DNA of 29,909 nucleotides from a virus (Duplodnaviria; Caudoviricetes): the IMG/VR virus record IMGVR_UViG_3300017761_004738, positions 1-29,909 of that record; one strand, given 5' to 3'. The first letter of the stretch is position 1, and the number at the start of each line of letters is the position of its first letter. The translations under genes were made by a program, and so were the position numbers. Of the stretch, positions 2,708 to 29,414 are shown in pieces. Under the pieces are notes generated by a model, which did no database searches, had not been told where the DNA came from, and saw only the letters and a program-made list of their open reading frames with translations.

Positions 2708-3508
2708 ATGGCGTTGGTGCAACCTATTAAATGGCATGGTGGTAAACATTATTTAGCGTCTAAAATTGTCGCGATGATGCCTACGCATGCGCGGTATCTT
2801 GAGGCGTACGCGGGCGGGCTGAGTGTGCTGTTGGCTAAGCCTTGCGCTGGTGTGGCTGAGTGGGTGAATGACTTAAACGGCGAGCTTACCAATTTTTGGC
2901 GAGTGCTTGCGTCAACGCCTGATCGGATGTTGAGGGCGCTTTGGAGTACGCCACTGTCGCAAGATGAATTTTTGGCGGCTCGGGCGTTTCAGGCGGGCGA
3001 TGATGTGAAGCGGGCAACGGCGTTTTTTATTCGCATGCGCATGAGCCGTCAGGGGCTCGGGCGTGATTACTGTACGCCAGTTAAGAAGCGAACTAGGCGC
3101 GGGATGAATGAGCAGGTGAGCGCGTGGCTATCGGCGGTCGATGGGTTGCCGGATGTGCATGCAAGATTGCGGCGGGTTGAGGTTTGGAATCGGCCCGCAA
3201 TTAAAGCGATTCAGGAATTGGATGGTGACGGCTTTTTAGTTTACGCTGATCCGCCCTACATGCATTCAACGCGCTCAACCAAAAGCGAGTACGGCGCTTT
3301 CGAAATGTCGGTTGCGGATCATATCGAGTTGCTTGATTGCCTTGCGTCGATGCGCGGAAAGTTCATTCTGAGCGGTTATCATTCTGAGTTGTATGGTTTG
3401 TTTGCAGAAAAAAACGGCTGGAATTTGCATGAGTTCGAGTTGCCGAATAATGCATCAAGCGCGAAAGCAAAAGAGCGTAAGGTTGAGGTTGTTTGGTGCA
3501 ATTTCTAG
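2708..3508 (+). CDS. DNA adenine methyltransferase, D12/Dam family
   Basis: KWHGGK, YLEAYAGG, VNDLN and DPPY motifs; AAGGAGG SD upstream. Confidence 0.95.
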   Translation: MALVQPIKWHGGKHYLASKIVAMMPTHARYLEAYAGGLSVLLAKPCAGVAEWVNDLNGELTNFWRVLASTPDRMLRALWSTPLSQDEFLAARAFQAGDDVKRATAFFIRMRMSRQGLGRDYCTPVKKRTRRGMNEQVSAWLSAVDGLPDVHARLRRVEVWNRPAIKAIQELDGDGFLVYADPPYMHSTRSTKSEYGAFEMSVADHIELLDCLASMRGKFILSGYHSELYGLFAEKNGWNLHEFELPNNASSAKAKERKVEVVWCNF

Positions 3509-3543
3509 TTATGAGATTTTAGATTTGAAAAAGGAGTTGGATT

Positions 3544-7685: not shown

Positions 7686-8549
7686 TTGAGTAAGCAGTTT
7701 GATGGTTTGTTGCCTGGGGATCGGGTTTATATCGCTGGGCCGATGCGTGGTATTGAGTACTTCAATTTTCCGGCATTCGATGCGGCGCGGGATCGGTTGC
7801 GCAAGTTTGGGTTGAATGCTATTTCGCCTGCTGATATGGATCGGGCTATAGGGTTTGATCCGAATCAGATTGCAAACCCTGAGGGCTATGATTGGCGCGA
7901 TTTGAATAAAGTCGGGTTTAACTTGCGCGATGCATTGGATCGCGATGTTGCGGCGCTCAAGGAGTGTGATGCAATCTACTTGCTGGATGGCTGGGAGGGT
8001 AGCAAGGGCGCTCAGGCTGAAAAGGCGGTTGCGGAGTGGTTGGGGTTGAAAGTGGTTTATCAGAGTGAGCCTTTGAAAGCTGAATTTGTGGCTAAGAGGC
8101 TGGCGCGGCGAGTGTTCGGGCTGGTTGATGATCCGCAAACTGATGAGCAATCTGATGAGGTTACTGCTGATCGGTTGCGGGTTGTGCAGTCGGGTGTTGC
8201 GGCGTTGGCTGAGGGGCAGACTGAGGTTAATGAGGCGGGCGGTAAGCAGTCTTTTATTGCGGCGCGGTTCGATTGCATTCCGGCTATTTGTCAACGGTTG
8301 CTCGCGCAGTGCCTCGGGTTTGGTGCGCGTAAGTATGGCAAGGAAAATTGGCAGAAAATACCAATTGAGGACAATCTAGCGCATGCAATTAATCACTTGA
8401 ATGAGTGGCGGTTGGGTGATCGGTCTGAGCCTCATTTAGTTAATACTTTAGCTCGGGTTAATTTCGCGCTGTGGCAGGCTGTGCAAAGCGGGGATCAGGC
8501 TGAGCAGTATATTCATCCTGATATGATTGCGAGCGGTGAGGGTAGTTAG
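7686..8549 (+). CDS. DUF4406 (nucleoside deoxyribosyltransferase-like) fused to dATP/dGTP diphosphohydrolase (DUF5664-like) domain
   Basis: N-terminal VYIAGPM.G...FN..AF...CDAIYLL.GWE.SKGA..E; C-terminal GGKQS...RFD.IP...GARKYG..NW.K...H...HL...EPHL. Confidence 0.85.
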   Translation: MSKQFDGLLPGDRVYIAGPMRGIEYFNFPAFDAARDRLRKFGLNAISPADMDRAIGFDPNQIANPEGYDWRDLNKVGFNLRDALDRDVAALKECDAIYLLDGWEGSKGAQAEKAVAEWLGLKVVYQSEPLKAEFVAKRLARRVFGLVDDPQTDEQSDEVTADRLRVVQSGVAALAEGQTEVNEAGGKQSFIAARFDCIPAICQRLLAQCLGFGARKYGKENWQKIPIEDNLAHAINHLNEWRLGDRSEPHLVNTLARVNFALWQAVQSGDQAEQYIHPDMIASGEGS

Positions 8550-10776: not shown

Positions 10777-11334
10777 GTGGCTAATGTTGTTGGCGGTGTG
10801 AAAGTTGGTAAGCCGGTGGTTGGTAAGCCGGTCGTTAAGGCTGGGGCCAAGTCGGTCGTAAGTGCTCAACCAAGTGCTCAACCAAGTGAGCAACCAAGTG
10901 AGCAACCAAGTGAGCAACCAAGTGAGCAACCAAGTGAGCAAGTAGTTGAGCAACCAAGTGAGCAACCAAGTGCTCAACCAAGTGAGCAACCAAGTGAGCA
11001 GGATTTAAGCGATTTGGCTGGGGCGGTTGAGAGCGCTGGGCGCTATGAGATTCCGGTTGCCTGGGTGTCGGTTCGCATTCCGGTTGGTGATCTTCCGGCT
11101 GGGTATGAGCAGCAATTGGCGGCTCGGGGTGCGGTTAATATCACTGGGACGCATTTGCAGTTGCAGGTTAAGCCTGAGTTAGCTGGTTTACTGTTGCGTG
11201 TTCGGCAAGCGCTGCGCGATTTGAATGAGTCGATTGATGAGAGCGGTAAGCCGGTGGTTAGCAATGCTGATGTGATTCGGTGGTTGCTGTTGCAGGTTGC
11301 GGCGGGTTTGGAAGTAGAGCCGGCGCGGGGTTAG
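10777..11334 (+). CDS. hypothetical protein with (QPSE)n tandem repeat
   Basis: open 185 aa ORF directly after terL; genome-typical codons outside the repeat. Confidence 0.7.
   Translation: MANVVGGVKVGKPVVGKPVVKAGAKSVVSAQPSAQPSEQPSEQPSEQPSEQPSEQVVEQPSEQPSAQPSEQPSEQDLSDLAGAVESAGRYEIPVAWVSVRIPVGDLPAGYEQQLAARGAVNITGTHLQLQVKPELAGLLLRVRQALRDLNESIDESGKPVVSNADVIRWLLLQVAAGLEVEPARG
10861..11000 (+). repeat. 12-bp tandem repeat AGTG(AG/CT)CAACCA, about 11.5 units
   Basis: ten perfect ACCAAGT cores at 12-bp spacing from 10869 to 10989; one degenerate unit at 10941. Confidence 0.95.
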
Positions 11335-11880: not shown

Positions 11881-11890
11881 AGGGGGCGTG

Positions 11891-12925
11891 ATGGTTAAGG
11901 CTGCGGTTGATAGTAAGCAGGTTGAGAAAAAACCCAGTAGGCCGAAAACGGCTATGAGGGTTGAGGCTGAGCGGTTGTGTCGTGATATGCCTGAGGCTAC
12001 AAGTTCGAGTTTGGCTAAGCGGCTGGCGAGTGAGTTCAAGTGTAAGGTTGAGGTTGCGCGTTCGGCGGTGCGTGAGATTCGCGGGCAAAATGGGGATGCA
12101 AAGCGGGCTAAGGCAACGCAACCTAAGGCTGAGGGATCGCGAGCGCCTAAGATGCCACCTAGCGCGGCTGAAAAGTGGTCGCCATTTGAGTTGCAGGGCG
12201 CTAGGCGGGTGCTTGTGTTGTCAGATACTCACATTCCCTACCATGATGAGCAAGCGCTAGAGGCGGCGGTTGCTTGGGGTAAAAAGCAGTCGCCTGATGT
12301 GGTGTTGCTCAATGGTGACGTTGGGGATTTTTACACTATTTCGCGGTGGCAGAAAAACCCTAAGAAGCGTGATTTTAAGGCTGAGTTAGCTGCGGTGCGG
12401 CAATTCTCAGAATGGTTGCGGTTCGAGTTTCCTAAGTCGCGGATCGTTTGGAAAAAAGGCAACCATGATGAAAGATGGGATCATTGGCTGTGGAATCATG
12501 CGCCTGAGATTTCTGATTGCGATGAGATGCTATTGGAAACCTGGATGCAATGCGACAAGTGGCGCATTGAAATGGTGGGCGAGCAGCGGCCCGTTATGTG
12601 CGGACTGTTGCCGGTGTTTCATGGGCATGAGTTAGGGCGCAGCGGTATAGCCTCGCCGGTTAATCCGGCGCGGGGTGCGTTTTTGCGGACTCATCATACG
12701 GTGATGGTTGGGCATAGCCACCAAACCTCGGGGCATGCTGATACTAACCTTTGGCATGAGGAAACCTTTGTTTGGTCAACGGGTTGCCTGTGCGATTTAA
12801 CGCCTGAGTATGCGCGGGTGAATCGGTGGAATCATGGATTCGCTAAGGTTGATATTGCGGTTGATGGTTCGTTTGATGTGAGCAATCTGCGGATCGGGCG
12901 CAAGGGTGAAGTTCGTTCGGCTTAG
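11891..12925 (+). CDS. calcineurin-like metallophosphoesterase with N-terminal helical extension
   Basis: SDTH, GDVGD, GNHD, HGHE and GHSH motifs. Confidence 0.92.
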   Translation: MVKAAVDSKQVEKKPSRPKTAMRVEAERLCRDMPEATSSSLAKRLASEFKCKVEVARSAVREIRGQNGDAKRAKATQPKAEGSRAPKMPPSAAEKWSPFELQGARRVLVLSDTHIPYHDEQALEAAVAWGKKQSPDVVLLNGDVGDFYTISRWQKNPKKRDFKAELAAVRQFSEWLRFEFPKSRIVWKKGNHDERWDHWLWNHAPEISDCDEMLLETWMQCDKWRIEMVGEQRPVMCGLLPVFHGHELGRSGIASPVNPARGAFLRTHHTVMVGHSHQTSGHADTNLWHEETFVWSTGCLCDLTPEYARVNRWNHGFAKVDIAVDGSFDVSNLRIGRKGEVRSA

Positions 12926-21761: not shown

Positions 21762-23852
21762 ATGAGTGGGAATCAAGTTAGGGCGGGCGGTGCTTATGTT
21801 GAGGTATCGTTGCGGGATCGCGTTGGCAAGGGGCTAAACGCGATTGAGCGGCGGTTGTCGGCTACTGGGCGCGGGATAGCTTCGTTAGGCGGTGCGTTGG
21901 CTGCGGGTGGGCTGGCTGCGGTCGGTTGGCCTTTGAAGTTGGCAGCGGATATGGAACAAGTAGCGGTGTCGTTTGAGGTAATGACGGGTTCGGCGGCGCG
22001 TGGAAAGCAGATGCTTGATGAGATAAAAAAGTTTGCGGCCTCAACTCCGTTTGGGTTCACTGATTTGAGCGATGGGGCTAAAACGCTGCTGGGCTACGGT
22101 GTGGCGGCTGATGATGTGATCGGTACGCTGCGCTTGCTGGGTGATGTTTCGGGCGGTGACGTTGAGAAGTTGAAGCGGCTCGCGCTGGCTTATGGGCAGG
22201 TTCAGGCTAAGGGCAGGTTGATGGGGCAGGAAGTTTTGCAGATGGTTGAAAATGGATTCAATCCATTGCAGCAAATTGCGGAGGGGATGGCTAAGCAGTT
22301 TGGCGGGTTGGCGAAGGATTATATGCCTGGGCTAACTAAGAAAATGGAGGAGGGCGGCATTTCCTCGGGAATGCTAACGCAGGCTTTTGTTGATGCAACA
22401 AGCGCCGGCGGGCGGTTCGCGGGGATGATGGAACGGCAAGCGGGGACGGGCTTAGGGTTGCTGGCGCAGATTGTTGATAACGTGACTTTTGGGCTAACTG
22501 AGTTTGGTACGCAGTTGCTTGAGTCGATCAAGCCTGGGTTAAAGTTGGTGCTTGGGTTGGCTACGGCTATGCGCGGGTTTGTGGCGGCGAATGCTGGATT
22601 CCTCAAGGTGTTTGGGTTGGTGGCTTTGGGTGTTACGGCGCTGGGTGGTGTGTTGGCGGCTGTCGGGTTGGGTGCGGTTGCATTATCAACGGTCGCGGGC
22701 GGGTTGGCGCTTGCTTGGGGGATGGTTGCGGGCGCGATCGCGGCGTTGTTTACCCCATTGGGCGCGGTGGTTGCGCTGGTTGGCTTGGCGGGTGTGGTGG
22801 CGTTCAATTTTCGTGCGCAGATTGGGGCGGCGTTATCCTCGGTGGTTGCGTACGCTGCGCCGGTTACGGATGCGATTGGGCGGGTTTATGCGGTGTTCGC
22901 TGAAATGTTCTCGGGGATCGTGGGGGCGCTAGCTGGTGGGCAGTTGCAGGCGGCGGCGGGGATCGCGTGGCTGGGGTTCGTTGCGGCGGCTTGGCAGGGT
23001 GTGCTTGAGTTAGGCAATGCGATTGATGCGGGGTTGGGTTATTTGCAATCGTGGATTCCTGGGATTGAGGGCGTGAGGAGTTATGTTTCGGCGGCGTTCG
23101 CTTCGATGGGTCAAGCTATCTTGGCGGGCCGGTGGGACTTGGCTGGTTCTATCATGATGGCAAAACTGAGGCTTGTAATTACGGATGGCTGGAATGCTAT
23201 CGCGAACACTTGGACGGGTTTTTCTACTGTACTTGGCGGCGTGTGGGATTCTATCGTAAGCGGGATTAAGTCTACTTGGCGCAATGCGGTTACTGAGATT
23301 GCTAAATGGTTGGTGTGGTTGGCTGAGCAAGCTGGGTTTTCGATGGATGGTGTCAAGGCTGAGCTTGATAGGATGAATGCGGCGGAACAAAAGCAGGCGA
23401 ATCGGGATCAGGCTGGGCGAGAGCAGGGGCGCTATGATGCCGGCGCTGCGGCGATGGCTGAGCGGGAAAAGCAGGCGGCGGCTATTCGCGCTCAGATTGC
23501 GGAACTAGAAAAGCAATCGAGTGAGGCGTTTGTTGGTGCGGGCTCGCCATCGGTTGCGGATAATGCGAGCGCGGCGCGTAAGCAGTTGCAAGATGCTATG
23601 GGGGCGGCTGAGGCTGAGCGAGCGGCGGGCATGATGGGCGGCGATAAGAAGTTTAGCCCACAATTGCCTAAGTTGGCTGAGGGGGCGGCGGCGCAGATGA
23701 AAGTTGAGAGCAAGGGTACGTTTTCGGCTGCGGCTGCGGGGTTGTTTGGGTTGGGGAATGATGCGGGCAACCAGACGGCGCAGAACACTCGCCGAATGGT
23801 TACGCAGTTAAATCAGTTGAATAACAATTTGACGGGCGGGGCTACGGTTTAG
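21762..23852 (+). CDS. tape measure protein
   Basis: FA..TPF, GDV.GGD, AYGQV...G.LMGQE..Q tape-measure N-terminal domain; long Ala/Gly helical repeats with spaced Trp. Confidence 0.93.
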   Translation: MSGNQVRAGGAYVEVSLRDRVGKGLNAIERRLSATGRGIASLGGALAAGGLAAVGWPLKLAADMEQVAVSFEVMTGSAARGKQMLDEIKKFAASTPFGFTDLSDGAKTLLGYGVAADDVIGTLRLLGDVSGGDVEKLKRLALAYGQVQAKGRLMGQEVLQMVENGFNPLQQIAEGMAKQFGGLAKDYMPGLTKKMEEGGISSGMLTQAFVDATSAGGRFAGMMERQAGTGLGLLAQIVDNVTFGLTEFGTQLLESIKPGLKLVLGLATAMRGFVAANAGFLKVFGLVALGVTALGGVLAAVGLGAVALSTVAGGLALAWGMVAGAIAALFTPLGAVVALVGLAGVVAFNFRAQIGAALSSVVAYAAPVTDAIGRVYAVFAEMFSGIVGALAGGQLQAAAGIAWLGFVAAAWQGVLELGNAIDAGLGYLQSWIPGIEGVRSYVSAAFASMGQAILAGRWDLAGSIMMAKLRLVITDGWNAIANTWTGFSTVLGGVWDSIVSGIKSTWRNAVTEIAKWLVWLAEQAGFSMDGVKAELDRMNAAEQKQANRDQAGREQGRYDAGAAAMAEREKQAAAIRAQIAELEKQSSEAFVGAGSPSVADNASAARKQLQDAMGAAEAERAAGMMGGDKKFSPQLPKLAEGAAAQMKVESKGTFSAAAAGLFGLGNDAGNQTAQNTRRMVTQLNQLNNNLTGGATV

Positions 23853-23859
23853 GGGCTAT

Positions 23860-24663
23860 ATGGCAACTGATATTGTTATCAAAGAGCATTCGGGGCAGAG
23901 TGGGAATCTAAGTACTTCCGATGTTGCGCATACGATCAAGTACGATGTTTGGGATCGGAATAGGGAAGCTACCCCAATTGAGTTGCGCGCGGCGGTTTTG
24001 TCTGAGATTCCCGCAACCTATGACGGCTGCGGGTTGAGTGATTTGGATTACGTTGAGGAGGATGGTACTAATCACTTTTGGTTTACGGCGAAATATACCT
24101 CGCGGGCGCTGGAATCCCTGATGCGGATCGGTTGGGATTCGACGGGCGGGACGGTGCGGTTAACTGCGTCGAGGGGTACGCAGCGGTACGCGGTAAGCGG
24201 TCGGACTGCGCCGGATTTCAAGGGCGCTATCGGTGTTCGCAATGGTGAGCCTGAGGGGGTGGATATTGTCGTTCCCACATTGAAGTTAGTTGTAAGTTAC
24301 AAGTGGCCGAATGGGGTTATTGATCTAGCCTACGTTAAGGATATGGCGGGCATGGTGGGCATGGTTAATAATGCCAATTTCTTGACGTTTGCGGCGGGTG
24401 AGTTGTTGTTTTTGGGGTCGAGTGGTGAAATTGATCCGATAGCGGCTACTGATATTCAATACCACTTTGCGGCATCGAAAAACGCAACTGGGTTATCCAT
24501 TGGCGATATTGCGGGCGTAGCGAAAAAGGGGCATGAGTATTTGTGGGTCGCGTTTGAGGCGTCGGCGGATACTAGCGCAAAGAAGTTAGTTCAAAGACCG
24601 TTGGCGGCGTACGTTGAAACGGTTTATCAGGTTGGAAGTTTTAGCGGGTTGGGAATTGGGTAG
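23860..24663 (+). CDS. tail tip/hub protein
   Basis: directly after the tape measure gene; VN...F..FAAGELLFLG and KKGHEYLWV motifs. Confidence 0.7.
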   Translation: MATDIVIKEHSGQSGNLSTSDVAHTIKYDVWDRNREATPIELRAAVLSEIPATYDGCGLSDLDYVEEDGTNHFWFTAKYTSRALESLMRIGWDSTGGTVRLTASRGTQRYAVSGRTAPDFKGAIGVRNGEPEGVDIVVPTLKLVVSYKWPNGVIDLAYVKDMAGMVGMVNNANFLTFAAGELLFLGSSGEIDPIAATDIQYHFAASKNATGLSIGDIAGVAKKGHEYLWVAFEASADTSAKKLVQRPLAAYVETVYQVGSFSGLGIG

Positions 24664-24692
24664 CTTGCTTACGCTTTCGGGTTGGGGGATAG

Positions 24693-25511
24693 ATGGTTAA
24701 GGCTGGTGGGTTTATCCCTACGGTGAATGGGTCGCGGGCGATTACTGCTATTCGGCCCGCCACTTGGAATAAGATAGCGCAAACCATCAACGCGGGGGCG
24801 TTGGGGGCGAATGGCGGCGGCTCGGGTCGGGCCGGCGCTAATTGGGTAATGGTTAAGAATAGCTCGGGGAGTGATCGCGCTCGCTTCGATTGCTTGGCGC
24901 TGGGTGATCCGGTGGTTGCGCTAACCACTGATGGGCAAGTTGATTTGCTGTTGAATGCGGTTGCGGCTGATCCGGCTAAGGCGGCGGTTGTGTTGGTTGA
25001 GCCGATTGCGAATAACCAAACTGGCTATGGGGTGTTGGTTGGGTTGGTGTTGGCTAAGGTGCTGAGCGGGAGTACTTCGTTTCGGTTTGGTGAGGCTGAT
25101 GCGAGCGGTTCGGCGATTAAGCCGGTTGCGAGCGGGCCGATACGGTTGTTGGGTGCGCCTAGTGCTAGTGCGAGTGTTCTGTTGCCGGTGTTGCTGGGTG
25201 GCGGTGGCGCTAGTGTTGATGTTGGCGTTGCTAAAACGCCTAGCGGTGGGATTCCGGCGCGTTCGGGTATTACGCTGGGTGTGGCTACATGTACGCTCGG
25301 GGAAACCTACGACGATGGCGGCGTGATCAAGATTCGCGAGGCTACGCCAACTACAACGGCGCTCATCTATAACTCTACTTCGATTGCAACTAGCGGATCG
25401 GCTTGGATTCATTGGAAGCTAGAGAACGGGCGGCGGCTGATTGATGTGGATGATTGTAATGCGGATGGTTCTAGTTCTGGTGGTAACGTCATAAATGGGG
25501 GGACGCCCTAA
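24693..25511 (+). CDS. minor tail protein
   Basis: I.P.TWN N-terminus; beta-rich; TPSGGIPARSG motif; tail-module position. Confidence 0.65.
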   Translation: MVKAGGFIPTVNGSRAITAIRPATWNKIAQTINAGALGANGGGSGRAGANWVMVKNSSGSDRARFDCLALGDPVVALTTDGQVDLLLNAVAADPAKAAVVLVEPIANNQTGYGVLVGLVLAKVLSGSTSFRFGEADASGSAIKPVASGPIRLLGAPSASASVLLPVLLGGGGASVDVGVAKTPSGGIPARSGITLGVATCTLGETYDDGGVIKIREATPTTTALIYNSTSIATSGSAWIHWKLENGRRLIDVDDCNADGSSSGGNVINGGTP

Positions 25512-25513
25512 AC

Positions 25514-26479
25514 ATGGGACTTGGGATGCGGAATCCTGGCTGTAATTGCGGCATAACGGCAACACGCAAAAGCGCGTGTTGCAATACGCTGGCTTGGTGT
25601 GGAAAAGGATATGTAACACTAGATAAGAATGATGGCTTCGGACCATCGACGGTCGCCAATACTGGTGAGGTCGAAGTGTGCAATCCTGGGCCGTATAAAC
25701 TTCGCTCAACATTGTGCGGACGTACGAAGAAGTGCCAAGCAAACTTGGCGATTTGTCCATTTGAGTTCAAAAGGATGCGGATTCGATGGCAACCAATAAA
25801 TCACATTAATAACACTACGCGCTCATGTATCGAGGCGGGCGGGGCTAGTATAGTGCGCCGGTTCACTGAATATATAACTCGCTCACACGACGATATCGAT
25901 ATTGTAATGGATTTTCCGTATAATGTGAATTGTAGCGCAGTTATCGGATATCCCATTGAAATAGATTTAGGGGCGTTTAGTTACTCCTCGGGTATTTCGG
26001 GGGAGGCGAATACGGGGCCGGGCGGGAGTTTCTTGCCTTACGATTATTCGGCATCTGAAGCGTGGTCTATGAAGTGGCATTATAACACCGTTTTCCCGAA
26101 CGGCGTTCAGGTTCCTACTTTTCCGCTACCGATGAGTTTCTATGAGATTAATGATTATGATTTCAGCATTACCTACACTGGATGGACGCCCTATAATCCT
26201 ACGGCAACGCAATGCACCGGATTCTTTGGAAGTTGTACAGCGGCGTTTGGGATTGTCGTCAATCAGCGTGTTTCGCTTAGTTTTATGGGTACTGGTTTAT
26301 TGTGTGCTTCTGTTTCCAATAGGTACTCGCTCGGTGTTTGGGCTTGCGGTGTTAGGCGCAGCAAAACCAATGTACTCGCGTGCAGCAATTGCACTAGAAC
26401 GGATGAGGATTATTCAGTTGGCGATAATGTAATCTACAGGGCCTCAGATGAAGTATGGACGGACATAGCATGCGTTTAA
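25514..26479 (+). CDS. Cys-rich (18 Cys in 321 aa) putative tail/receptor-binding protein
   Basis: long ORF; NPGCNC..CC N-terminus; Tyr/Thr/Ser-rich; composition differs from flanks. Confidence 0.7.
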   Translation: MGLGMRNPGCNCGITATRKSACCNTLAWCGKGYVTLDKNDGFGPSTVANTGEVEVCNPGPYKLRSTLCGRTKKCQANLAICPFEFKRMRIRWQPINHINNTTRSCIEAGGASIVRRFTEYITRSHDDIDIVMDFPYNVNCSAVIGYPIEIDLGAFSYSSGISGEANTGPGGSFLPYDYSASEAWSMKWHYNTVFPNGVQVPTFPLPMSFYEINDYDFSITYTGWTPYNPTATQCTGFFGSCTAAFGIVVNQRVSLSFMGTGLLCASVSNRYSLGVWACGVRRSKTNVLACSNCTRTDEDYSVGDNVIYRASDEVWTDIACV

Positions 26480-26943
26480 TCCAAAAAAGTTGCAGTTGCG
26501 GGCGATTGATTCCCGAATGTACTGAGTTCAAGTGTGTTTGTGGTGCGGTCTACGGGGATAGGATAAAGATTCATAGCAAGACTATTGCAGTTGCTAGGGA
26601 AATCGCAGTTGTTAGCGGCAAGCGTCTTAATCCGTGGGAGGTTATTCATAGGCGATATGCGGCTGCTGTTGCGTCGGGTGTGTGGGATGAGGCGGTTGAG
26701 GCGGTTTGGTTGCGTTCTGAGTGGGTTACGCTCATCCCTAAGGCGTGTGGGTGTCAAGATAAGAGCGAGAAGCTAGAAGCGTTGCTATCGCGGATCGATT
26801 TAACAACGGCTGAGAGTGCTGAGAGGTCGGCTTTCGAGTTGCATAACTGGGTTAGCGTCAACCATGTTGATCCGCCTAAGCCTACGATTGATTGGGATGA
26901 GTATCGTGGGATTTATCCGTTGTTGGTGAATGGGGGAGTTTAA
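26470..26943 (+). CDS. Erv1/Alr-like sulfhydryl oxidase homolog
   Basis: WEVIH ... IPKACGC ... FELHNWV ... KP..DW matches the Erv order WxxxH / PCxxC / HNxVN / KP; N-terminal CSC, C, CVC. Confidence 0.65.
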   Translation: MRLIQKSCSCGRLIPECTEFKCVCGAVYGDRIKIHSKTIAVAREIAVVSGKRLNPWEVIHRRYAAAVASGVWDEAVEAVWLRSEWVTLIPKACGCQDKSEKLEALLSRIDLTTAESAERSAFELHNWVSVNHVDPPKPTIDWDEYRGIYPLLVNGGV

Positions 26944-28583
26944 TGCCTGCTGATGTGACAATTCTATTGCGTGGTGGGACTGCGGCTGAGTGGGTTGCTG
27001 CAAATCCGGTGCTTGAATTTCGTGAGGTCGGCGTTGAGACTGATACGCGAAAACTCAAAGTCGGTGACGGTTCAACGGTTTGGAATTCGTTACTTTATAT
27101 GGGTTCGGGCGGTGCTGATGGCGTTGACGGTAAAACGCTGCGCAGCGGATCGGGCGCGCCGGCTAGTGGGTTCGGTACTGATGGCGATTTCTACATCAAC
27201 ACTTCGGCGAATACAATCTACGGGCCTAAGGCGTCGGGCGCGTGGGGTTCGCCTACTTCGTTGATTGGGCCTGTGGGCGCAACGGGTGCTACTGGGGCGG
27301 CTGGTGCAACGGGCGCTACTGGTGCAACGGGTGCGGCCGGTTCTGATGGCGCTGATGGTGTAGATGGTAAAACGGTGCGCAATGGATCAGGCGCGCCATC
27401 AAGCGGGTTGGGGGTCGATGGCGATTTCTATATTGATACCTCGGCTATCGCAATCTACGGGCCTAAGGCGTCGGGCGCGTGGGGTTCGCCTACTTCGTTG
27501 ATTGGGCCTGCGGGCGCAACGGGTGCTACTGGGGCGGCTGGTGCAACGGGTGCGGCTGGGGCTGATGGTGTTGATGCTGATATGACGCGAACTAGCACTA
27601 GTTCGATTACTATCGGTACTGGTTCGTTGACGTTTGGCTATTCATCTTCGTTAAATCTAGGCTGGGTGGTTGGTACGCGCCTGCGGGCTGCGGCCAGTCC
27701 TACGGATTATGTTGAAGGGCCTGTTACTGCGGTTTCTTCGGTCAGTGTAACTATCAATGCTGATTACAAGGTTGGTAGCGGTACGTTTACAAGTTGGGGT
27801 ATTGGTATCGCTGGTGATCGCGGGGCTACTGGATCAGGCGGCGGGGGTGATACTTCACTAATTGGCGCGGCCAATTATGCGCGTTGCGTGATTTCTAACA
27901 ATGCAACCGATGTGACGAATGATATTGATTGCGCTGCGGGTACTGAGTGGGTTACGAACGGTACGCTATGGAAACCCGTTGCCGTGTCGGCGTTGACTAA
28001 GCGGCTTGATGCAAGTTGGGCGGTGGGAACGAATCAGGGCGGGCTAGATACGGGATCGAAAGCTAATTCTACTTGGTATTATCTTTGGGTCATTCATCGA
28101 AGTGATACGAGTGCTACCGATGTGCTTTTAAGCGCCTCGGCTACTGCGCCCACGATGCCCAGCGGATACGATTACAAGAGGCGTATTTGGGCAATAAAAA
28201 CAAATTCTAGCGGGGCGATATTAGTGTTTTCGGCTAGCGGTGATTATTGCGGGCTGAATGACTTATTTTTCGAGTTCTCCAACACAATTCCCCCTACATC
28301 GCGAACGGCTGTTACTCTTGGCGGAGTGCCTGCAATAGAGACAATCGCAAAGGTTTTGCTCCAAGCGTCCAATTCGTCGGCGGGTCGAACGGTGACGGTA
28401 ATGCATGGTAAGGCGAGCGGGACTAACATTGAGCTTTTCATTCGCGGCGCTAGTGCTGTCCAGGATTTTACGGGCTTAGTCCCAACTAATAGTAGCGGGC
28501 AAATACAGTGGCTAGCTAATCTGAATTCGGGTTGGACCGCTTTACAGATTCAGACGATGGGTTTTTACTTTTTGGATCGGTGA
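26943..28583 (+). CDS. tail fibre with Mtd/hyaluronidase-like N-terminal anchor and collagen-like repeats
   Basis: RGGTAAEW...NPVL...E.G.ETDT.KLK.GDG...WN.L.Y; (GAT)n triplets; duplicated G.GAP...G.DGDFYI...YGPK module. Confidence 0.9.
   Translation: MPADVTILLRGGTAAEWVAANPVLEFREVGVETDTRKLKVGDGSTVWNSLLYMGSGGADGVDGKTLRSGSGAPASGFGTDGDFYINTSANTIYGPKASGAWGSPTSLIGPVGATGATGAAGATGATGATGAAGSDGADGVDGKTVRNGSGAPSSGLGVDGDFYIDTSAIAIYGPKASGAWGSPTSLIGPAGATGATGAAGATGAAGADGVDADMTRTSTSSITIGTGSLTFGYSSSLNLGWVVGTRLRAAASPTDYVEGPVTAVSSVSVTINADYKVGSGTFTSWGIGIAGDRGATGSGGGGDTSLIGAANYARCVISNNATDVTNDIDCAAGTEWVTNGTLWKPVAVSALTKRLDASWAVGTNQGGLDTGSKANSTWYYLWVIHRSDTSATDVLLSASATAPTMPSGYDYKRRIWAIKTNSSGAILVFSASGDYCGLNDLFFEFSNTIPPTSRTAVTLGGVPAIETIAKVLLQASNSSAGRTVTVMHGKASGTNIELFIRGASAVQDFTGLVPTNSSGQIQWLANLNSGWTALQIQTMGFYFLDR
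27214..27550 (+). repeat. direct repeat within tail fibre: 27214-27313 vs 27451-27550
   Basis: 100 bp with one mismatch, 237-bp period. Confidence 0.92.
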
Positions 28584-29090: not shown

Positions 29091-29146
29091 GATCGTTGGC
29101 GCGTTGGCTGGTGGGCAGTTGCAAGCGGCGGCGGGGATCGCTTGGC
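29091..29146 (+). repeat. 56-bp fragment homologous to tape measure gene 22916-22971
   Basis: 50/56 identity; all 6 differences synonymous (IVGALAGGQLQAAAGIAW). Confidence 0.9.
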
Positions 29147-29414
29147 GGCGGCGTTCGGGCCTGATGTGTGGAATGAGTCGAGTGAGCGCGTTTGGTTGCG
29201 TTCTGAGTGGGTTACGCTCATCCCTAAGGCGTGTGGGTGTCAAGATAAGAGCGAGAAGCTAGAAGCGTTGCTAACGCGGATTGATTTAACAACGGCTGAG
29301 AGTGCTGAGAGGTCGGCTTTCGAGTTGCATAACTGGGTTAGCGCCAACCATGTTGAGCCGCCTAAGCCTACGATTGATTGGGTTGAGTATCGTAGGCTAT
29401 ATCCGGTTGGCTGA
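29142..29414 (+). pseudogene. 5'-truncated second allele of the Erv-like gene
   Basis: 29190-29393 matches 26704-26907 with 5 mismatches in 204 bp; lacks the WxxIH helix and N-terminal cysteines. Confidence 0.8.

Follow-up and report, generated by a model that had tools for sequence, protein, structure and literature searches.

An Erv-like gene behind a cysteine-rich gene

The window analysed here is the whole of a 29,909-nt tailed-phage record (IMGVR_UViG_3300017761_004738), linear and about 35% complete, that encodes a terminase, a lambda-type portal, an S49 protease, the major capsid and major tail proteins, a tape measure protein, and a collagen-containing fibre. Ahead of the fibre gene lie the two genes of interest, one for an Erv/ALR-like protein of 157 aa and, directly upstream, one for a 321-aa protein with 18 cysteines:

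26470–26943, + strand: Erv/ALR-family protein, 157 aa, with an N-terminal Cys segment (residues 8–24) and an Erv core (residues about 52–154)
26491–26541, + strand: C8-x-C10 ... C22-x-C24 segment of that protein, likely an optional zinc ribbon judging by the knuckle pattern in relatives
25514–26479, + strand: protein of 321 aa and 18 Cys whose N-terminus bears a C-x-C ... C-C cluster; likely client and, by gene position, likely tail-tip or receptor-binding protein
24693–25511, + strand: 272-aa tail-block protein with Cys255 and then a 17-residue Gly/Ser-rich end; candidate adaptor or tether partner
23860–24663, + strand: conserved 267-aa gene behind that for the tape measure, an independent anchor (398 matching stretches in viral contigs)
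21762–23852, + strand: tape measure protein (PF20155, E 1.8e-23)
26943–28583, + strand: tail fibre, Mtd-type at its N-terminus and carrying collagen-like repeats; joined to the Erv gene through TAATG

The two genes share a 10-nt overlap, and the Erv stop codon overlaps the fibre start as TAATG; these couplings and the 18-Cys gene are as an earlier note on this sequence had described them. Cysteine makes up 5.6% of the 321-aa protein versus 0–2.1% of the products of the 20 other window genes outside the pair. Its position suggests that it is likely a tail-tip or receptor-binding protein, and we regard it as the likely client of the Erv protein. Three metagenome runs of freshwater, taken from as many studies, contain over half of the region's sampled words, and the best of the three may be the source sample. 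Because contigs from two runs cross the region (one from X1 covering 22000–26733, which spans the whole cysteine-rich gene and enters the Erv gene, and another from X3 covering 26452–27243), the linkage of the two genes is not an assembly artefact. A possible earlier ATG for the Erv gene lies at 26455, but a public run reads C at that position (synonymous in the 321-aa frame, as read by hand), and the 26470 start is therefore favoured.

Homology and predicted fold

The 157-aa ORF contains W56-E-V-I-H60, I89-P-K-A-C93-G-C95, F122-E-L-H125-N-W-V-S, and K137-P, with Y149 also in the core; five of its seven cysteines are N-terminal (C8, C10, C17, C22, and C24). The earlier note had singled out WEVIH, IPKACGC, FELHNWV, and KP as Erv-like. 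All are present, and since six residues (W56, H60, W72, C93, C95, and H125) are invariant across 33 aligned relatives, the motifs are more than chance; the flavin-proximal di-cysteine ahead of helix 3 is kept in every row. A direct Pfam scan of the window protein gave no PF04777 match. Homology to that family was found transitively via relatives, by profile comparisons and HMMER alignments, and the predicted model of the protein is an Erv four-helix bundle with a short fifth helix, bearing out the fold proposed earlier. On homology, predicted fold, and the retained Trp, His, and Cys pair, we take the gene product for a predicted Erv/ALR-fold protein whose site reads CxC, a variant member of a known enzyme family in an unexpected host.

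The active site and the flavin pocket

That the active site reads CxC instead of the canonical CxxC, as first noticed from the motif itself, was confirmed at C93-G-C95, and the occurrence of CxC in relatives excludes a defect specific to this copy. Among the 33 relatives, the dithiol is spaced as CxC in 19, CxxC in 11, CC in two, and CxxxC in one; it is CxC in all 85 of the Erv-anchored loci described below. Because a 37-row tree requires three or more changes of spacing on supported branches and nests the window clade with CxxC forms (support 98/91, with a rough bootstrap), we infer that CxC is a working state of the family and not decay. CxxC is named as the Erv signature in one source (part of PMC10598087), and the family is defined by fold, cofactor, and active-site cysteines in another (part of PMC3509050); as the window protein departs from the canonical spacing though a fold-based definition exists, we class it as an Erv variant.

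The flavin contacts of yeast Erv1 (W95, Y128, F137, H162, V165, K171, F174, and W183, as listed in a section of PMC4721541) were mapped by HMMER alignments. The window protein retains W95, H162, V165, and K171 and has Tyr149 in place of W183. Several substitutions speak against a working pocket: Ile89, Ser99, and Ile140 stand at the positions of Y128, F137, and F174, and HNxVN reads HNxVS. The aromatic four residues after the second cysteine (C+4, Erv1 Phe137) is kept in 27 of the 33 relatives, and Ser99 is the weak point of the pocket. We predict with good confidence that the window protein binds FAD.

Were the flavin chemistry lost, the Erv-fold protein could be a Mia40-like CxC disulfide carrier or chaperone for the cysteine-rich protein, re-oxidised by other means. 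The Mia40 active site is CPC (part of PMC8557897), CxC here replaces CxxC, the C+4 aromatic is lost in the window's four-member clade, and an unrelated-looking CxC helical helper occupies the same slot in two loci. However, the pocket Trp, both His, the Asn, the Val, and the Lys-Pro are all kept, and the repeated interchange of CxC and CxxC, with the window clade inside a supported clade that includes CxxC forms, also argues against loss; we consider a carrier unlikely.

The N-terminal cysteines are a separate matter. Their CSC and CVC had been suggested to act as shuttle thiols, a proposal that the relatives do not support. Two N-terminal knuckles are found in 25 of the 33 relatives (16 C4 and nine C3H, with His for Cys), N-terminal cysteines are absent from six, among them the three nearest relatives in the alignment, and one relative gives a weak zinc-ribbon Pfam match. 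Because of the nine His-substituted knuckles and the six losses, we reject a shuttle and read the segment as likely a dispensable zinc ribbon. For the same reasons, and with no conserved second Cys pair among the relatives, a shuttle-disulfide arm of the cellular Erv1/Erv2 type was rejected; the shuttle is missing from many viral Erv enzymes (part of PMC3509050).

Neighbourhoods of Erv genes

Two scans yielded 11 loci plus the best 80 of 136 matches, which, after removal of three giant-virus-like loci and three duplicates, left 85 Erv-anchored loci. In all 83 that have upstream DNA, the directly upstream gene encodes a protein with 6.6–9.1% Cys (one such gene is cut by the locus end), versus a background of 8 of 355 ORFs. 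The co-occurrence with cysteine-rich tail-block genes, which the earlier note had named as a check, is therefore supported, in counts that come from another Erv clade. Inspected one gene at a time, eight of the 85 loci show the pair last in the tail block, behind a tape-measure-like gene. The 83 partners fall into four unrelated groups (of 78, 3, 1, and 1 members), none detectably homologous to the window 321-aa protein, so that, the window included, there are about five independent partner types. Low-GC giant-virus-like contigs (L099–L101, 5779–6291) encode an Erv-like protein without active-site cysteines.

A C-terminal fusion is present in 20 of the 33 aligned relatives, in several cases to a glycosyltransferase (by Pfam, four above the GT4 cut-off and four weak GT8 matches). 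The Erv domain might accordingly act in something else late in infection, for example where virion proteins are glycosylated, its position being incidental. The window protein is unfused, however, and because the fused forms with context (L096–L098 and L181) also follow a cysteine-rich gene, fusion fits a shared client; we find the glycosylation proposal very improbable. Eight relatives (P0009, P0013, P0024, P0026, P0027, P0029, P0031, and P0036) have Erv fused to a domain of ~220 aa with invariant N-x-D-x-E-I and G-x-P-x-W-D-Y, glycosyltransferase-like by eye only, and in P0019 Erv is fused to phosphoribosyltransferase-like and HAD/LNS2 phosphatase-like domains, the latter a weak Pfam match.

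Neighbourhoods of the 267-aa gene

The 267-aa gene provided an anchor for related phages, from which we took the best 80 of its 398 matching stretches; only six of the records are 90% complete and most are fragments. Relatives of the 272-aa protein sit in the same slot at the anchored loci. No Erv ORF was detected in any of the 80 best-matching records, mostly fragments, either at the locus or record-wide, by a search that found all its controls (the window and two Erv loci). Many of these no-Erv phages do have a cysteine-rich gene where the window has its 321-aa gene; behind it comes a DUF6171-like protein, some other small Cys protein, or no obvious counterpart, so that Erv predicts a cysteine-rich neighbour and not vice versa.

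Such phages would suit a scheme in which disulfides form only at or after lysis by air, and Erv, instead of catalysing folding in the cytoplasm, speeds the reaction as an optional extra or is packaged as part of the tail. Against it, all 83 loci with upstream DNA place Erv directly behind the cysteine-rich gene, and where Erv is missing that position often goes to another small Cys helper; we give this scheme little credence.

The CxxC-rich DUF6171-like proteins behind cysteine-rich genes are found in L088 (3303–3764, where the DUF6171 label comes from a weak Pfam match), L023 (9197–9574), L082, L083, L085, and L089. In L066 (9142–9567) and L081 (3156–3572), a small helical protein with GPGTEL and CxC lies directly behind the cysteine-rich gene; it has no Pfam match and no clear relation to Erv.

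Cysteine counts in the partner proteins

Cysteines of the Erv-locus partners were counted with starts trimmed and with sequences clustered at 70% and 50% identity, kinship being ignored. At 70% identity, 22 of 25 clusters have an odd number of cysteines, and at 50% it is 15 of 18; for 16 other residues the figure is 7–16 of 25. The cysteine counts mostly step by two (31, 33, 35, 37, 39, 43), as would follow if cysteines were gained or lost pairwise with one left over. An N-terminal Cys cluster opens these partners, and the gene preceding the partner has a terminal Cys in 42 of 42 distinct tails. In an independent set of 49 distinct tails (short or cut loci excluded, kinship again ignored), a Cys within the last 10 residues is accompanied by at least two among the first 35 residues encoded by the next gene in 18 of 28 cases versus 2 of 21. 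We infer that partner and preceding tail protein may be covalently tethered, a pattern of which the window is an imperfect example, with 18 cysteines and the upstream Cys255 17 residues from the end.

The cysteine-rich protein might instead bind Zn or Fe-S through a large share of its cysteines, with the Erv protein controlling or delivering to the sites and with no structural disulfides. Metal sites are known in phage tail tips, for example in lambda gpL, a CxxC-rich DUF6171-like protein often follows in the no-Erv phages, and partners there are CxxC-enriched (28 observed vs 14.7 expected). Yet the window partner has one CxxC among its 18 cysteines, the Erv partners have an excess of adjacent CC (19 observed vs 9.5 expected) and none of CxxC, their counts mostly step by two, and an oxidase would strip metal from thiolates. 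We think metal binding improbable.

Proposed role

Our preferred reading, which as a whole strikes us as reasonably probable, is that the Erv protein is likely an FAD-binding enzyme and that its likely substrate is the 321-aa protein, whose cysteines it would oxidise in the host cytoplasm during predicted tail assembly. Enzyme and client would be supplied together via the overlapping genes. Client thiols would reduce the C93–C95 disulfide, C95 would hand electrons to FAD, and O2, an acceptor assumed from other Erv enzymes, would take them from FAD; a kinetoplastid Erv uses cytochrome c and not O2 (part of PMC8557897), so the acceptor here may differ. Most client cysteines would pair intrachain, and in most relatives the leftover odd Cys would bond to the last Cys of the tail protein encoded just before it, tethering both.

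A broader version, which we hold only tentatively, is that a widespread group of uncultured tailed phages has its own cytoplasmic oxidative folding by a CxC Erv flavoenzyme, with a eukaryote-like disulfide-rich tail-tip protein tethered through an unpaired Cys to the C-terminal Cys of the preceding tail protein, and that in related phages Erv is swapped for small Cys helpers (DUF6171-like or of the GPGTEL-CxC type), which would then be disulfide catalysts not yet recognised as such.

Besides the pocket substitutions and the no-Erv phages with their cysteine-rich genes, a number of observations tell against the proposed role. The neighbourhood counts come from the other Erv clade (HNxVN type; 99.8% profile match to the window family), viral contig searches with the window's own clade yielded only the window itself, and 78 of the 83 partners are a single family. 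The p-values of the co-occurrence and parity tests ignore kinship. Homology searches, including those against the Erv-locus partners, detected no homologue of the 321-aa protein, whose even Cys count is unlike the mostly odd counts of those partners. Cys255 of the 272-aa protein lies short of its end, and sequence comparison did not establish that protein's homology to the small adaptor family. Finally, the CxxC depletion of the big partner family fails across the five independent partners (12 observed, 9.4 expected).

Relation to known Erv systems

Vaccinia encodes an Erv pathway for virion disulfides, the E10R-A2.5L-G4L relay. Baculovirus Ac92/P33 is a virus-encoded Erv for virion disulfides in a reducing compartment (part of PMC11654684). 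The window phage would resemble both in having a virus-encoded Erv for virion disulfides in a reducing compartment, as proposed here from the genes. It differs from them in that its host is a bacterium and that no thioredoxin-fold G4L-like relay partner was identified on the ~35% complete contig, where no systematic search was made. In CyDisCo, Erv1p and PDI in the E. coli cytoplasm, an Erv enzyme drives disulfide formation in a bacterial cytoplasm (part of PMC8601162); that system is artificial and includes an isomerase, whereas the window phage, the proposed natural counterpart, has none that we found.

Compared with African swine fever virus (ASFV) pB119L (PDB 3GWL), a compact Erv sulfhydryl oxidase, the window protein has CxC versus CxxC, HNxVS versus HNxVN, an extra N-terminal Cys segment, a bacterial virus as its source, and a dedicated neighbouring candidate client. 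It differs from Mimivirus R596 (3TD7/3GWN), yeast Erv1/Erv2, and mammalian ALR (PF04777) in lacking its own PF04777 match and a structural disulfide, in having no demonstrated shuttle disulfide, and in the Ile, Ser, and Ile at Erv1 Tyr128, Phe137, and Phe174.

Descriptions of Erv oxidases place them in eukaryotes and large viruses, and bacterial homologues are stated to be absent in part of a 2023 phylogeny (PMC10598087). We found no published description of a phage Erv or its context in an incomplete body of literature, without supplements. A phage version would extend a large-virus strategy to tailed phages, would mean natural, catalysed disulfide formation in the bacterial cytoplasm, and would bear on the family's place of origin. 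A 100-residue CxC oxidase evolved for that compartment could also beat yeast Erv1p for making disulfide-rich proteins.

A second Erv copy and other features of the window

Downstream of the fibre gene lies a second copy, omitted from the earlier note:

29091–29414, + strand: relic comprising a 61-nt tape-measure-like piece and a second Erv copy without helix 1 (no W-x-x-x-H); likely non-functional

The 61-nt piece is 87% identical to 22916–22976 in the tape measure gene. The Erv part (29142–29414) is 5'-truncated and duplicates the 3' portion of the 26470 gene, with eight differences in 216 nt; its 5' end is closer to two database relatives than to the first copy. Contigs from runs X1 and X2 enter the repeat from this side and stop after 29 nt; the 5' junction is therefore present in two runs. 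The copy is likely a non-functional relic of recombination. A diversity-generating retroelement was rejected as the source of the 29142 repeat: the differences are of mixed kind and not adenine-specific. No reverse transcriptase was noticed among the contig ORFs, for which no profile search was made. The database protein P0003, from a 1.3-kb contig, joins the 5' part of the second copy to the 3' end of the first, by repeat recombination or as an assembly path.

The fibre (26943–28583) combines Mtd-type domains with an internal duplication of 224 nt. A metallophosphoesterase gene (11888–12925) has homologues directly 3' of the Erv gene in L094–L098. At 10848–11012, 12-nt tandem repeats code for QPSE/QPSA runs, with like repeats in another gene near 1730–1838, and ATTTGAG-like units, possibly regulatory, recur intergenically at 3509, 5752, 7150, 12934, 17563, and 21724. 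Ahead of the terminase, 7686–8549 encodes DUF4406 fused to a dATP/dGTP diphosphohydrolase domain, and two DNA methyltransferase-like genes lie at 12–338 and 2708–3508.
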